Source: a virus (taxonomy: Duplodnaviria; Heunggongvirae; Uroviricota; Caudoviricetes). Taken from it: a DNA stretch of 8,178 nucleotides. Shown in pieces: positions 1,046-8,178 of the stretch. The notes beneath the pieces were generated by a model, which made no database searches, was not told where the DNA came from, and saw only the letters and a program-made list of their open reading frames with translations. The DNA lies in the IMG/VR virus record IMGVR_UViG_2778261085_000010; one strand, given 5' to 3'. Within the stretch, counting starts at the first letter, position 1. Every line of letters begins with the position of its first letter. The translations under genes and the position numbers were made by a program.

Positions 1046-1855
1046 TCACTTAATTATTGGATAACTCACACAAGTATGACCGTTGCTTATCGCATACATT
1101 TGGTTTCCCTTAAGATTTACAAATGGAAATGTCGTATACTCATAATTTATAGAGGTCATGTTAAATGTAAGGAATTTATCTTCAAGTTCTAATTTTGTAG
1201 AGTGGGCAGGGTATGTTCCTTCATTTTTCATTGTGATAATAAAACCGATAGGGAAAAAATGTAAAGCACAAATAAATGCCACATGTCCTTCGTTCATAAA
1301 TGCTACACTTTGAGCGGATATGTGCATTCTGTGTGGGTAAAACCAGTAGTAAATATCATGAGTTTCCTCAAAACTTGAATTTTTACCCAAAACATAATCC
1401 TTTAAAGGTGTATAGAAGGGGCTATCTACGGGTTCTTTTTTACAATCTTCAACTGAAGTTGCTGATAGCACGTGCCCAATCATAGCCTTAGTGAAAGATA
1501 TGCTATCAAAAGGTATTCTAATGAATGGATATACATTCATACCATTCATATATCGACTTAACTGTTCTTTAAAGGACTTTGTTACATTTTCAATTGCAAC
1601 ATCGAGCCCACCTAATACCTTATTGTTACAGTGGCTGCAAATGGTTCTGAAATAAGAGCCATTTTTAGCATTTAATGGTTTAACTGGTTCCTGAATACCA
1701 AAAAATTCGCTAACTGTTTTCTGCAAAACAGGGCCTAAGGTTATGGCGCACTTTGGAGGAACATGATCTTTTGTGAGCAAGCCATATTTCCCACAAATAT
1801 TGCAATAACCTTCAGTAATGCCATTGTGCTTCCATCGTTCACTAATTTTCGTCAT
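1046..1855 (-). CDS. HNH nuclease-domain protein with uncharacterised ~190-aa C-terminal domain (269 aa); AT-rich cargo gene
   Basis: Uninterrupted 810-nt ORF on the minus strand. Start ATG at 1853-1855 is preceded on the mRNA by GAGGGA plus a 7-nt spacer. The N-terminus carries a zinc-finger HNH pattern (CNICGKYGLLTKDHVPPKC ... NGSYFRTICSHCNNK). GC content is visibly lower than the flanking prophage genes and the gene is opposite in orientation to them. Confidence 0.7.
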   Translation of the reverse strand: MTKISERWKHNGITEGYCNICGKYGLLTKDHVPPKCAITLGPVLQKTVSEFFGIQEPVKPLNAKNGSYFRTICSHCNNKVLGGLDVAIENVTKSFKEQLSRYMNGMNVYPFIRIPFDSISFTKAMIGHVLSATSVEDCKKEPVDSPFYTPLKDYVLGKNSSFEETHDIYYWFYPHRMHISAQSVAFMNEGHVAFICALHFFPIGFIITMKNEGTYPAHSTKLELEDKFLTFNMTSINYEYTTFPFVNLKGNQMYAISNGHTCVSYPIIK

Positions 1856-2268: not shown

Positions 2269-2317
2269 TTTTATATTGGCGAGGTGACGTGAGTTAAGTA
2301 GAATTGCTGCGGGTGCT

Positions 2318-2358
2318 TGAGGCTATCTGCCTCAGGCATGAACACCAAAGGCAGATAG
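2318..2358 (+). promoter_or_regulatory. hok mRNA leader with mutually exclusive stem-loops
   Basis: Local hairpin TGAGGC(2318-2323)/GCCTCA(2329-2334) overlaps an alternative long-range 9-bp pairing CTATCTGCC(2323-2331)/GGCAGATAG(2350-2358). Alternative folds of this kind are characteristic of hok-family mRNA leaders. Confidence 0.4.
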
Positions 2359-2479
2359 ATAAAAGCCCCAGTTAACATTACGCGTCCTGCAAGACGCTTA
2401 ACATTAATCTGAGGCTCAATCTATGAACGGCAAATCTAGGTTAGCCTCTTACGTGCCGAAAGGCAAGGAGAAGCAGGCT

Positions 2480-2635
2480 ATGAAGCAGCAAAAGGCGATG
2501 TTAATCGCCCTGATCGTCATCTGTTTAACCGTCATAGTGACGGCACTGGTAACGAGGAAAGACCTCTGCGAGGTACGAATCCGAACCGGCCAGACGGAGG
2601 TCGCTGTCTTCACAGCTTACGAACCTGAGGAGTAA
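2480..2635 (+). CDS. hokD: Hok-family type I toxin HokD/RelF (51 aa); possible in-frame upstream start at 2423
   Basis: Translation MKQQKAMLIALIVICLTVIVTALVTRKDLCEVRIRTGQTEVAVFTAYEPEE matches the HokD/RelF sequence as I recall it and carries the Hok signature (TM helix, LCEVRIR, AYE). AAGGAG RBS lies 9 nt upstream of ATG 2480. A second in-frame ATG at 2423 also has a GAGG RBS 8 nt upstream, which would give a 70-aa form. Confidence 0.85.
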   Translation: MKQQKAMLIALIVICLTVIVTALVTRKDLCEVRIRTGQTEVAVFTAYEPEE

Positions 2636-2642
2636 GAGACCA

Positions 2643-2664
2643 GGCGGGGGAGAAATCCCTCGCC
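2643..2664 (+). other. Stable 3' hairpin with GAAA tetraloop after hokD
   Basis: GGCGGGGGA-gaaa-TCCCTCGCC forms a 9-bp stem (one G-U pair) with a GNRA loop, 8 nt after the hokD stop. Consistent with hok mRNA 3' fold-back elements. Confidence 0.45.
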
Positions 2665-2703
2665 ACCTCTGATGTGTCAGGCATCCTCAACGCACCCGCA
2701 CTT

Positions 2704-2730
2704 AACCCGCTTCGGCGGGTTTTGTTTTTT
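2704..2730 (+). terminator. Rho-independent terminator downstream of hokD
   Basis: ACCCGC-ttcg-GCGGGT stem with UUCG loop, followed by TTTTGTTTTTT. Confidence 0.6.
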
Positions 2731-2802
2731 CCTGGCATTCTGGTTTACAATTCGCACGCCAGCCTGAACAACTGGCACCTGCTGCGCCAGCAGAGACAAC
2801 CG

Positions 2803-3081
2803 ATGGCGCACGATACCAAATTACACAATTCTGATAATTCAGCCGTCTTTGCCAGCAGGCACGGGCGGCGCTCTCACGCATTTAAATCTGATTGGTACCA
2901 GCATCCCCCATGTACTGAAGAACAAGCTGAATGGCTAATTCAGTGCTACCGCAGACACGGATACGAGATTAAGAAAGCCCTCAGCCTCGATTATCGTCAC
3001 TGGATAATCTCCGTCAGGCTTCCTTACTCCGAACGCCCACCGCGTCCGTCACGCACATTCCAGCAACGGATCTGGAGGTAA
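2803..3081 (+). CDS. rem: Rem-like small prophage protein (92 aa from ATG 2803)
   Basis: Listed ORF 2674..3081 starts with a GTG inside the hokD terminator, so the internal ATG at 2803 (weak GAGA RBS) is the more plausible start. Position between hokD and the DUF968 gene matches the K-12 Qin order hokD-rem-ydfU. Symbol assigned by synteny and recollection, not by alignment. Confidence 0.45.
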   Translation: MAHDTKLHNSDNSAVFASRHGRRSHAFKSDWYQHPPCTEEQAEWLIQCYRRHGYEIKKALSLDYRHWIISVRLPYSERPPRPSRTFQQRIWR

Positions 3082-5352: not shown

Positions 5353-6369
5353 ATGTGTAGTATCAATAAACTTAGTGTTATTGTCCCGTTATATAATGCG
5401 GGCGATTATTTCTGCACCTGTATGGAATCTTTAATCACGCAAACGTGGACTGATCTGGAAATTATCATTATTAATGATGGTTCGACAGATAATTCTGTTG
5501 AGATAGCAAAGTATTACGCGGAAAACTATCCGCACGTTCGTTTGCTGCATCAGGCTAATGCTGGCGCATCGGTAGCGCGTAATCGTGGGATCGAGGCGGC
5601 GACGGGCAAATATGTCGCTTTTGTCGATGCTGATGATGAGGTCTATCCCACCATGTACGAAACGCTGATGACCATGGTGTTAGAGGATGACCTCGACGTG
5701 GCGCAGTGCAACGCTGACTGGTGTTTTCGTGAAACGGGAGAAACCTGGCAATCCATCCCCACCGATCGCCTTCGCTCAACCGGCGTATTAACTGGCCCGG
5801 ACTGGCTGCGGATGGGACTTTCTTCCCGCCGTTGGACTCACGTTGTCTGGATGGGCGTTTATCGTCGCGACGCTATTGTAAAGAATAATATTAAATTTAT
5901 TGCCGGATTACATCATCAGGATATTGTCTGGACAACTGAGTTTATGTTTAACGCGCAGCGTGCGCGATATACCGAGCAATCGTTATATAAATATTATCTG
6001 CATAATACGTCAGTGAGTCGGTTGAACAGACAAGGGAATAAAAACCTTAATTATCAACGTCACTATATTAAGATCACCCGCCTGCTGGAGAAATTAAATC
6101 GAAATTATGCCGACAAAATTACGATTTATCCTGAATTTCATCAGCAAATAACTTACGAAGCATTGCGTGTTTGCCATGCGGTACGCAAAGAGCCGGATAT
6201 TCTTACCCGCCAACGGATGATTGCCGAGATATTTGCTTCCGGTATGTATAAGCGTATGATTACGAATGTGCGCAGTATAAAGGTTGGTTATCAGGCGTTA
6301 CTGTGGTCTTTTCGCTTATGGAAATGGCGAAACAAAACACAGGTTATGCGTCCAATTGATTGGATATGA
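5353..6369 (+). CDS. Family 2 glycosyltransferase (GT2), soluble type (338 aa)
   Basis: N-terminal GT-A fold signatures: [53 protein letters not shown] (DxD). No C-terminal transmembrane pair of the GtrB kind is apparent. No obvious RBS upstream of ATG 5353. Confidence 0.8.
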
Positions 6370-6989
6370 TTTATATTTCTCATTTATCAAGATAATCATC
6401 CAGATGATCTTATTTGGTATTTTGCGCGACTTTTCAAATATCATAGGTTACAAAAAAGTTGTTGAATTGCTGTCTATCAACATGCGTTTGCTAACGAGAA
6501 AAGAATTTGTTGGTGTATTTTTTGAGAGGATAAAATACAACCGCTTTATGCCGATATGTTTCATAACAAAAGCGAAATCCGTATTAGCAGCAATCAAGAC
6601 GAACACACCAACGGGCTTCTCATGAGTAAGGATGGTCATATTCATACTGAGCTTAATGTTGACGGCTTTTGGCTTGTATTATTCGTAGTGTACAGCTCAA
6701 GTTGTCCAAGAGGAGCGAGAGTACCATGTCTGGCTTCTGTATGGAGTGTAACAATTAGTTAAGGGTAAGATAACTCTGTCAACCATTTCATATGGGAACT
6801 ATATAAATGCTTACGCGGTCCGCAAAAACAATTGTAACATGTTAAGAGTTATTACTTCGACTTCTTTCATACCCCCACCTCCGGGCTGTTTTTTGTGCCA
6901 AAGGGGAGGACGTTGAATGTGCTGGTTGGTGTGAATATGATGGTTTATTGCTAATTGCTTACTTCCCTGATGCGTGTGAAGTATTGGGT

Positions 6990-7514
6990 ATGACATCGAA
7001 ACAGATAGCGGAAGCCACCGGAAAGAAAAACATGGCTTCGCACTGGTTTGGTACCAGCCAGTGGCAGTTACCGAATGAGGCCGATTACAGTAAACTGCAG
7101 GTGCTGTTTGCACGTGTGGCGGCAGAAAAACATCAGCGCGGTGAACTGGAGCAGCCACACCATCAGCTGGTCAGCACATACAGCGAACTGAACCGGCAAT
7201 ATGTCAGCCTGCTGGAGGAATACAAATCACTGCGGCGTTATTTTTCCGTATCAGCTGCCGTTCCTTATACGGATGTCTGGACGCACAAGCCTGTGCAGTA
7301 TTATCCGGGTAAGCATCCCTGTGAAAAAACGGCGGATATGTTGCGTCAGATAATTACTGCCAGCAGCCGTCCTGGCGATTTGGTCGCAGATTTTTTTATG
7401 GGGTCGGGGTCGACAATAAAAGCGGCACTGTCGCTGGGACGCATGGCGATTGGCGTGGAACTGGAAGAGGAGCGTTTTAATCAGACGGTCAGAGAAATAA
7501 CGAAAGATTTTTAA
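6990..7514 (+). CDS. DNA methyltransferase C-terminal fragment (beta-class N6A/N4C type, AdoMet-binding half) fused to an unrelated HTH/coiled-coil N-terminus; probably truncated and inactive
   Basis: C-terminal ~85 aa (DVWTHKPVQYYPGKHPCEKTADMLRQIITASSRPGDLVADFFMGSGSTIKAALSLGRMAIGVE) matches the HPxxKP...FxGSGT motif-I region of beta-class methyltransferases such as YhdJ/CcrM. No DPPY catalytic motif is present anywhere in the frame, which is open only back to 6846. The listed start at 6948 is a TTG; ATG 6990 (MTSKQIAEATGKK...) is more plausible. Confidence 0.55.
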   Translation: MTSKQIAEATGKKNMASHWFGTSQWQLPNEADYSKLQVLFARVAAEKHQRGELEQPHHQLVSTYSELNRQYVSLLEEYKSLRRYFSVSAAVPYTDVWTHKPVQYYPGKHPCEKTADMLRQIITASSRPGDLVADFFMGSGSTIKAALSLGRMAIGVELEEERFNQTVREITKDF

Positions 7515-7616: not shown

Positions 7617-8064
7617 TCTTCCAGGTATGCAGGGTTTTATCTTTTATGTTAGCTGGTGGTTGCTGGTAACCTGAAATGGTTATGCTTGCTTACATAGTAA
7701 TCCGCGTAATTACGTAATGCAGCATGCCATACAGGTATCGTATAATGGCGATTACATAAGCCTACCAGGTTGATGATGCAGGTTAGATTCCTGCTACCTG
7801 CTACCTGCCCATGGTTGTTTATGCCAAGACTATGTCAGGCACTGACATTATATTATGTGGGGTGTTTTTTATGGTTACTTGCGCACCCTGTTCTGTAATG
7901 AGTGATATTCGTTGCGGTTCCAGTGCCATTTTTTTTACAACATCGGAATGGTGCATTATTAGCAAATATTTTTTCTGCTTCAGGCATTATTCCGATGTTG
8001 TAAACATCGACAAAACAAAACCCAGATTAGTCACATACTAAGTCAAGCCCGGACATCATTCCTT

Positions 8065-8089: not shown

Positions 8090-8104
8090 ATTGTGCACAG
8101 AAAA

Positions 8105-8123
8105 CCCCCAGCTAGGCTGGGGG
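8105..8123 (-). terminator. Candidate terminator for a minus-strand gene entering from beyond the window end
   Basis: CCCCCAGC-tag-GCTGGGGG 8-bp stem; on the minus strand it is followed by TTTTCTGTG (short U-tract). Confidence 0.4.
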
Positions 8124-8178
8124 TTCCGGAAAGCTTTCAGCTTTGAGCCAGTTATTAAAACCCCTTTTGATTTGTTAA

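Follow-up and report, generated by a model that had tools for sequence, protein, structure and literature searches.

Evidence for a complete hok/sok-type toxin-antitoxin cassette around a prophage-borne hokD gene

The toxin gene hokD is described in Escherichia coli K-12 as the third gene of relBEF, without the leader elements of functional hok/sok loci. A copy of the same gene in a lambdoid prophage segment of 8,178 nucleotides (IMG/VR record IMGVR_UViG_2778261085_000010; this whole stretch is hereafter the window) was noted in a preliminary description to stand without relBE and behind a structured leader, and the suggestion was made that it may be an autonomous, possibly antisense-regulated hok locus. 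The question raised is therefore whether this hokD belongs to a self-contained type I toxin-antitoxin system, or is the distal part of a longer transcription unit as in K-12.

The evidence favours the former. Positions 2276–2727 most probably constitute (probability about 0.92) a type I toxin-antitoxin cassette of the hok/sok type that is complete and self-contained and travels as cargo in a lambdoid prophage; it would be hokD in its intact form, orthologous to the mokW/hokW/sokW cassette of Stx phages. The suggestion of an autonomous, antisense-regulated locus is supported at the sequence level by a full-length match of the leader to the Rfam model RF01794, by 93.8% identity to mokW/hokW/sokW of phage 933W, and by the failure of the leader to align with the K-12 junction. 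In its ortholog, the cassette is already described, annotated and experimentally studied, and it is very common in E. coli; the activity of the present copy is suggested by analogy. The Sok gene itself, the pairing between the 5' and 3' ends of the mRNA (tac–fbi), and the fact that the cassette was already described and very common had been missed in the preliminary description.

Genomic setting and identity of the toxin gene

The window is a segment of a lambdoid prophage. Its genes comprise, in order, the end of a replication gene, a DUF977 gene, a low-GC ORF of 269 aa on the opposite strand, the hok/sok cassette, a 92-aa ORF, and the genes for DUF968, RusA and the Q antiterminator, followed by a GT2 glycosyltransferase, a DNA methyltransferase ORF corresponding only to the C-terminal half of its model, a tRNA-like gene and the start of STnc490. 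The two neighbouring ORFs (269 and 92 aa) yielded no match in PADLOC or Pfam, and only families of unknown function in PHROGs. In phage Tritos and several E. coli prophages the cassette is found at the same site, accompanied by different neighbouring cargo.

The toxin encoded by the cassette is identical to K-12 HokD in 51 of 51 residues (tblastn, 2480–2632) and matches the Pfam family PF01848 (HOK_GEF; E = 3e-23, 81.6 bits, cutoff 22), identical copies of the protein being named hokD in RefSeq. HokD is toxic on expression and has served as a toxic control (10.1101/2025.08.07.668861).

A relBEF arrangement was considered for the window and rejected, tblastn with RelE, RelB, Rem and YdfV leaving HokD as the only match. 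The best scores of RelE (E = 0.17) and RelB (E = 3.4) fell at unrelated sites and were not significant, as expected from the earlier observation that no RelE-like coding sequence precedes hokD. The nearest upstream gene (1046–1855) lies on the opposite strand, so that read-through cannot be the sole source of hok mRNA; the closest ORF on the same strand ends at 770.

Leader, candidate antisense RNA and predicted folding of the hok mRNA

RF01794, named 'sok' in Rfam, matched the hok-sense (+) strand at 2311–2485 over the whole model (positions 1–157 of 157), scoring 111.1 bits against a gathering score of 59 (E = 2.7e-25). The model also matches K-12 hokC, K-12 hokB, R1-type hok and 933W hokW, on the strand antisense to the annotated sokC, sokB and sokW; since it runs antisense to annotated sokC and sokB in K-12, it describes the hok leader containing the Sok complement. 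A promoter-like site ends 7 nt upstream of the model start, its -10 box being aligned with the TATAAT/TAGGAT boxes of K-12 hokC and hokB, and model position 1 suggests that hok transcription starts near 2311. The elements recognised in the cassette are collected in Table 1.

Table 1. Predicted and transferred features of the hok/sok-type cassette, in window coordinates.
Feature	Position	Strand	Description and basis
hok mRNA promoter	2276–2304	+	TTGGCG (-35, 2276–2281), 17-nt spacer, TAGAAT (-10, 2299–2304); sigma-70 scan, 9/12; consensus-level prediction
Full-length hok mRNA, ~417 nt	2311–2727	+	Predicted from RF01794 start to intrinsic terminator
tac element, mRNA 5' end	2311–2322	+	GGGTGCTTGAGG; folds of 35-, 65- and 417-nt transcripts
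Metastable 5' hairpin, nascent transcript	2313–2339	+	2313–2323 with 2329–2339, 11 bp; MFE of first 35 nt, -19.6 kcal/mol
Stable leader hairpin	2323–2358	+	2323–2332 with 2349–2358, CTATCTGCC...GGCAGATAG; RF01794 consensus structure and folds
Sok-type antisense RNA, 71 nt	2361–2431	- (2431 to 2361)	14-nt tail, long hairpin, UUUU; coordinates from annotated 933W sokW
ucb / anti-SD box	2363–2371	+	AAGCCCCAG; folds; with mok SD region 2408–2416 (closed form), with tac (open form)
mok frame, 70 codons	2423–2635	+	In frame with hok; SD GAGG 2411–2414; ORF list; co-linear with annotated mokW
Predicted Sok promoter	2438–2466	-	TTGCCT (-35, 2466–2461), 17-nt spacer, TAACCT (-10, 2443–2438), 6 nt before 2431
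hok toxin CDS, 51 aa	2480–2635	+	SD GGAG 2467–2470
GAAA-loop (GNRA) hairpin	2643–2664	+	9-bp stem in all folds
fbi element	2685–2697	+	CCTCAACGCACCC; complementary to tac, one bulged C
Intrinsic terminator	2704–2727	+	AACCCGC-TTCG-GCGGGTT and T-run; 7-bp stem, UUCG loop, U-run; terminator scan

In silico, the tac element changes partner with the length of the transcript, pairing with 2329–2339 in the nascent RNA, with ucb (2363–2369) in the 65-nt fold and with fbi (2685–2697) at full length. The metastable hairpin, which contains the TGAGG-CTATCTG-CCTCA pairing (2318–2334) of the preliminary description, gives way in the 65-nt fold to the stable leader hairpin together with pairing of 2311–2318 to 2363–2369 (tac–ucb). 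The two leader pairings, 2318–2334 and 2323–2358, had been described as mutually exclusive; both are present, and they exclude each other because both use 2323–2334.

Folding of the full transcript, proposed earlier as a check, returned a structure well above chance, the MFE of the 417-nt RNA being -175.4 kcal/mol against -127.5 ± 6.0 in shuffled sequences (z = -8.0). The tac–fbi helix is predicted in both the MFE and the centroid structure, with 12 bp and one bulge (2311–2316 with 2692–2697, and 2317–2322 with 2685–2690). In the same fold the mok SD region is masked by the anti-SD box, and the hok SD/AUG region (2475–2489) is paired with 2603–2618; the roles given here to ucb follow, by analogy, those in R1 hok (PMC9841398). 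The GNRA hairpin and UUCG terminator already recognised at the 3' end were recovered, and the former, by comparison with the stem-loop that ends truncated R1 hok mRNA (PMC9841398), probably protects the 3' terminus of the mRNA once this has been processed to its active form.

On the minus strand, position 2431 is where the annotated 5' ends of sokW, K-12 sokC and K-12 sokB all fall. The 71-mer read from this position folds at -30.0 kcal/mol, compared with -15.1 ± 2.7 for shuffled sequences (z = -5.6) and -19.1 for the sense strand, and its predicted single-stranded 5' tail of 14 nt, GCCGUUCAUAGAUU, lies over the mok AUG. The pairing of UUAAUGUUA with UAAUGUUAA in the hairpin includes two G-U pairs on the antisense strand; the corresponding positions are C-A mismatches on the mRNA strand, which accounts for the 11 kcal/mol by which the antisense fold is the more stable of the two. 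This region had earlier been described as a hairpin, GCGTC (2382–2386)/GACGC (2393–2397), flanked by 9-bp direct repeats; the sequences are present, with TTAACATTA at 2372–2380 and 2398–2406, but what had been taken for direct repeats forms the two arms of a quasi-palindrome.

The Sok promoter was placed through the transferred 5' ends of annotated sok genes and through conservation; it was not called by the sigma-70 scan and agrees with the consensus at only 7 of 12 positions. The block that contains it is conserved across hokW, hokC, hokB and R1 hok, and close variants carry TTGACC/TAATCT. The in-frame upstream start with its own ribosome-binding site, reported previously at 2423, likewise stands, its ATG being in frame with the hok ATG at 2480 and preceded by GAGG.

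A mechanism can be proposed that combines the present in silico results with homology to R1 hok/sok and hokW-sokW. Transcription from the cassette's own promoter would begin near 2311, and the nascent 5' end would fold into the metastable hairpin, hiding tac while transcription proceeds. Once the 417-nt RNA is finished, tac would pair with fbi, the anti-SD box (2363–2371) would occupy the mok SD (2411–2414), and the hok SD/AUG region would be held by 2603–2618; in this closed fold the RNA should therefore be stable, neither translated nor bound by Sok. Slow exonucleolytic trimming of the 3' end as far as the GAAA hairpin would remove fbi, upon which tac would turn to the anti-SD box and free the mok SD. 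Ribosomes translating mok from 2423 would then open the hok start, allowing the 51-aa membrane toxin to be made. The short-lived Sok RNA (71 nt, 2431 to 2361) would counteract this by pairing through its 5' tail with the mok start region, blocking mok translation and exposing the duplex to cleavage by RNase III, so that toxin would appear only when Sok is no longer replenished, for instance when the element is lost, when transcription is blocked or when the prophage is induced. Transcription of Sok, repression of Hok, cleavage of the duplex by RNase III and 3' processing of the mRNA are all ascribed to the present locus by analogy; the processing step is modelled on R1 hok (PMC9841398), the question of whether 3' processing activates hokW mRNA having been left open in the study of that system (PMC8621323).

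Variation, prevalence and rival readings

The alignment comprised twelve related loci (88–99% identical) located in prophages, phages, P1-like elements and a plasmid, two of them (pTB-nb1 and 673R7) being truncated at the 3' end; the comparison was restricted to close relatives, leaving aside the R1, F and pnd loci, as a full-length MAFFT alignment across the family was poor. Both sides changed in 12 base pairs, compared with 4.6 ± 1.7 in shuffled controls and 3–7 with slid partners. The alignment thus lends modest covariation support to the predicted structure, and the percentage of paired positions is biased upward, because the window sequence itself supplied the structure and the relatives share at least 88% identity. 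The tac element is invariant across the 12 loci, and variation within the metastable hairpin is confined to C-to-U or A-to-G changes in which G-U pairs are kept. Substitutions at 2330 and 2331 (C to U) maintain pairing in both alternative helices, the pair 2331/2350 being compensated from C-G to U-A in two loci; in the GAAA hairpin, the pair 2651/2656 is changed from A-U to G-C, also in two loci.

The mok ATG is invariant in the same 12 loci, while its frame relative to hok and the encoded peptide vary, the variants including an in-frame version of 70 codons, a +1 version of 68 codons and a 19-codon ORF whose TGA overlaps the hok ATG. What is conserved in this alignment is translation into the hok start and not a Mok peptide, and the drift of the mok frame fits a selection that acts on the RNA and not on the peptide.

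Among close relatives, variation within the transcript is highest in the 12 nt at 2426–2437 (mean column entropy 0.99, against 0.18 overall). This stretch takes in mok codons 2–5, the beginning of the Sok 5' tail and the bases that immediately precede the Sok start. It might serve as a diversifying 'address' by which each Sok recognises its own hok mRNA and no other, a proposal that we regard as rather unlikely. If it were correct, several prophage-borne cassettes could coexist in one genome without cross-neutralisation.

An intact leader (2290–2465) was detected in 4,245 of 5,426 complete E. coli genomes (78%), the number of sites per genome having a median of 2 and a maximum of 10; at the coverage threshold applied (at least 80%) these counts may include close paralogous hok leaders and are an upper estimate for the exact allele. 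The K-12 relE-hokD junction was present in 1,167 genomes of the same set, and the K-12 relBEF arrangement is accordingly the derived, minority state. The RefSeq annotation under the leader was 'none' in every record shown. The name 'hokD' given by automatic annotation hence usually marks a complete hok/sok cassette, of which the Sok RNA, the mok frame and the leader are left unannotated. This is of use for annotation, and to anyone taking K-12 hokD as a model, and leaves the understanding of the system unchanged.

Intact architecture does not prove biological activity, nor does it fix the role of the cassette. The best-surviving alternative, to which we give somewhat less than an even chance, accepts the same device and assigns it a role other than addiction, namely faster host lysis and phage release upon induction, or abortive-infection defence against other phages. 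In prophage Sp5, mitomycin C depletes sokW and raises HokW, and deletion of the locus halves phage release (PMC8621323), the first of these roles having been shown in this way for hokW-sokW. On the other side, nothing in the sequence tells such roles apart, hok genes are not enriched near known defence systems (10.1101/2025.08.07.668861), and PADLOC detected no defence protein adjoining the cassette.

It is improbable that the cassette is structurally intact and yet a functionally silent relic, which no longer kills or is never activated. Such a state is conceivable in view of a passage in 10.1101/2025.08.07.668861, according to which the intact chromosomal hokA, hokB and hokC gave no post-segregational killing or rifampicin activation, and of the consensus-level nature of the Sok and hok promoter predictions here. 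Against it, no element of the cassette is damaged, and its toxin is the same protein as HokD, which is toxic; the 94%-identical hokW-sokW is active in Sp5 (PMC8621323); and the cassette occurs in most complete E. coli genomes, often in several copies, with substitutions that keep base-pairing. Finally, a K-12-like state, in which hokD would be the distal gene of an upstream operon, expressed by read-through only and behind a leader devoid of regulatory function, draws on the position of hokD in K-12 relBEF and on the roughly 99% identity shared from about 2466 to 2726, and is very improbable given the lack of relB and relE in the window, the opposite orientation of the upstream gene and the early end (770) of the last same-strand ORF, the promoter-like site 7 nt before the RF01794 start, and a leader that does not align with the K-12 junction.

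Comparison with known hok loci

The reading of the locus as a self-contained hok/sok-type cassette is best judged against its known relatives. In the Qin prophage of K-12, the relE-hokD locus shares only about 2466–2726 with the window, at about 99% identity. Alignment with this junction had been named beforehand as a check on the proposed autonomy: the leader does not match it, and K-12 homology begins only at about 2466, inside the Sok -35 box. K-12 hokD retains the hok SD, the coding sequence (100% protein identity), the GNRA hairpin, fbi and an identical terminator, whereas the hok promoter, tac, the leader hairpins, ucb, the Sok gene, the mok start and the Sok -35 box are missing, relB and relE standing in their place. 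RF01794 found no match in the K-12 Qin region, which, with the alignment, agrees with the description of K-12 hokD as a third gene of relBEF lacking leader elements. The prophage neighbourhood is shared, with DUF968 (ydfU-like) and Q antiterminator genes downstream. According to passages in PMC7232551 and PMC12214031, K-12 hokD was inactivated by genetic rearrangement (Pedersen & Gerdes 1999, as cited there); the same passages describe K-12 hok loci as inactivated by IS elements, point mutation or genetic rearrangement, and apparently intact hokD homologs in other strains. By the alignment, K-12 hokD has lost its promoter, leader, Sok gene and mok start to relBE, in agreement with that literature.

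The intended alignment with R1 and with other chromosomal hok loci showed the element order (R1) and the Sok start (sokC, sokB) to coincide with those of the window. The K-12 locus hokC/mokC/sokC (gef) is about 74% identical in the leader, with mokC in frame with hokC as here and the sokC 5' end at 2431; it lacks the 18-nt GCGTC...GACGC insert, and in K-12 IS186 lies immediately downstream of hokC. In the prototype, R1 hok/sok (parB), the same order is found, consisting of promoter, tac, leader hairpin, ucb, Sok target, mok SD GAGG, mok, hok, 3' stem-loop and fbi. Only conserved blocks align at the nucleotide level, among them the one with the Sok promoter, and the R1 locus differs from the present one in leader insertions and in the apical Sok hairpin; at the protein level, HokW and R1 Hok are 44% identical (PMC8621323). 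The R1 hok mRNA passes through a metastable hairpin, a closed form with tac/fbi pairing and, after 3' trimming, an open form with tac/ucb pairing, the last 3' stem-loop protecting the truncated RNA (PMC9841398), and the folding computed here, from the metastable hairpin through the tac/fbi closed form to the tac/ucb pairing, follows the same pathway.

The closest known relative is mokW/hokW/sokW of phage 933W (AF125520), whose 93.8% identity to the cassette extends over window positions 2291–2707 without gaps, so that features transfer directly: sokW at 2361–2431 on the minus strand, mokW at 2423–2635 and hokW at 2480–2635. Shared elements are the -10 box, tac, the metastable and stable hairpins, the 18-nt GCGTC/GACGC insert in the Sok hairpin, the in-frame 70-codon mok, the 51-aa hok, a GNRA-type hairpin, fbi and a 71-nt antisense RNA. 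The toxins differ at six C-terminal positions (...VFTAYEPEE here, ...VFVDYESEK in HokW), and the Sok 5' tail with mok codons 2–5 reads GCCGUUCAUAGAUU here and GUUCAGCAUGGAUU in 933W. The similarity does not extend upstream of the -10 box or downstream of 2707, 933W consequently carrying another sequence in place of the UUCG terminator. The cassette sits near the right genome end in 933W, and between the replication genes and the DUF968/rusA/Q genes here. Phage VT2-Sakai, which we take to be the Sakai Stx2 prophage Sp5, gave a match identical to that of 933W.

In Sp5, hokW-sokW has been validated experimentally as a type I toxin-antitoxin system, in which HokW is toxic and both RNAs are visible on northern blots (PMC8621323). 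Expressed from its own promoter, sokW neutralises HokW, and a mutation of the -10 box abolishes this neutralisation; the two RNAs are complementary over 71 nt, and RNase III and Hfq are partly required for the antitoxic effect (PMC8621323).

Variability within the hok/sok cassette

Among the 10 intact close relatives compared, the 12 nt at window 2426-2437 were the most variable in the entire hok transcript, with a mean column entropy of 0.99 vs 0.18 overall. This stretch, whose position relative to mok and the antisense RNA Sok is given in the table, may be a determinant of cognate Sok/hok specificity among co-resident copies.

Near-identical cassettes also varied in the frame of mok relative to hok (window 2423-2480; related hok loci L013, L016, L014, and L017). 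Three states were found, namely mok in frame with 70 codons, mok shifted by +1 with 68 codons, and a 19-codon ORF with its TGA overlapping the start codon (ATG) of hok. Despite these differences in frame, the ATG of mok was invariant across the cassettes.

Within the hok coding sequence, the UACG motif is kept at the Tyr47 codon (window 2618-2621); low-level A-to-I editing at this motif of hokD mRNA, converting Tyr to Cys, has been reported (PMC12214031).

Distal ORFs and RNA genes

The DNA methyltransferase ORF aligned to positions 168-329 of the 333 in a type II MTase model, and is probably a truncated gene. Near the window end, the tRNA-like gene was assigned by ARAGORN to tRNA-Gly with anticodon ACC (Rfam tRNA, 41 bits), while only the first 76 nt of STnc490 lie inside the window, the remainder extending beyond its end.

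Features flanking and overlapping the cassette, in window coordinates
Feature	Position	Strand	Remarks
269-aa ORF	1046-1855	-	Immediately upstream of the cassette, inside a low-GC island (35-37%)
Variable stretch	2426-2437		Spans mok codons 2-5; also takes in the 5' recognition tail of Sok at its first nucleotides, plus the bases immediately upstream of where Sok starts
GT2 glycosyltransferase	5353-6369		Just upstream of the DNA methyltransferase ORF; lower-GC DNA
DNA methyltransferase ORF	6948-7514	+	Type II MTase model match, C-terminal half only
tRNA-like gene (weak)	7731-7802	+	Downstream of the Q gene
STnc490, Hfq-binding sRNA	8103-8178	+	After the tRNA-like gene

Sites flanking the cassette in related genomes

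The 269-aa ORF contains CxxC...H...CxxC motifs; Pfam and PADLOC searches returned no match, its sole match being phrog_21495, of unknown function. Because phage Tritos, which carries the cassette at the same site, has a different 444-aa ORF in this position, the site looks like a variable cargo slot.

Downstream of the hok terminator (window 2727-2803; 1937-2768 in the related locus L018), the closest E. coli matches (e.g. strain 165) carry, before the next ORF, an extra stretch of ~665 bp, including a gene for a 130-aa hypothetical protein. This stretch is missing from the window, and in phage Tritos two other genes take its place.
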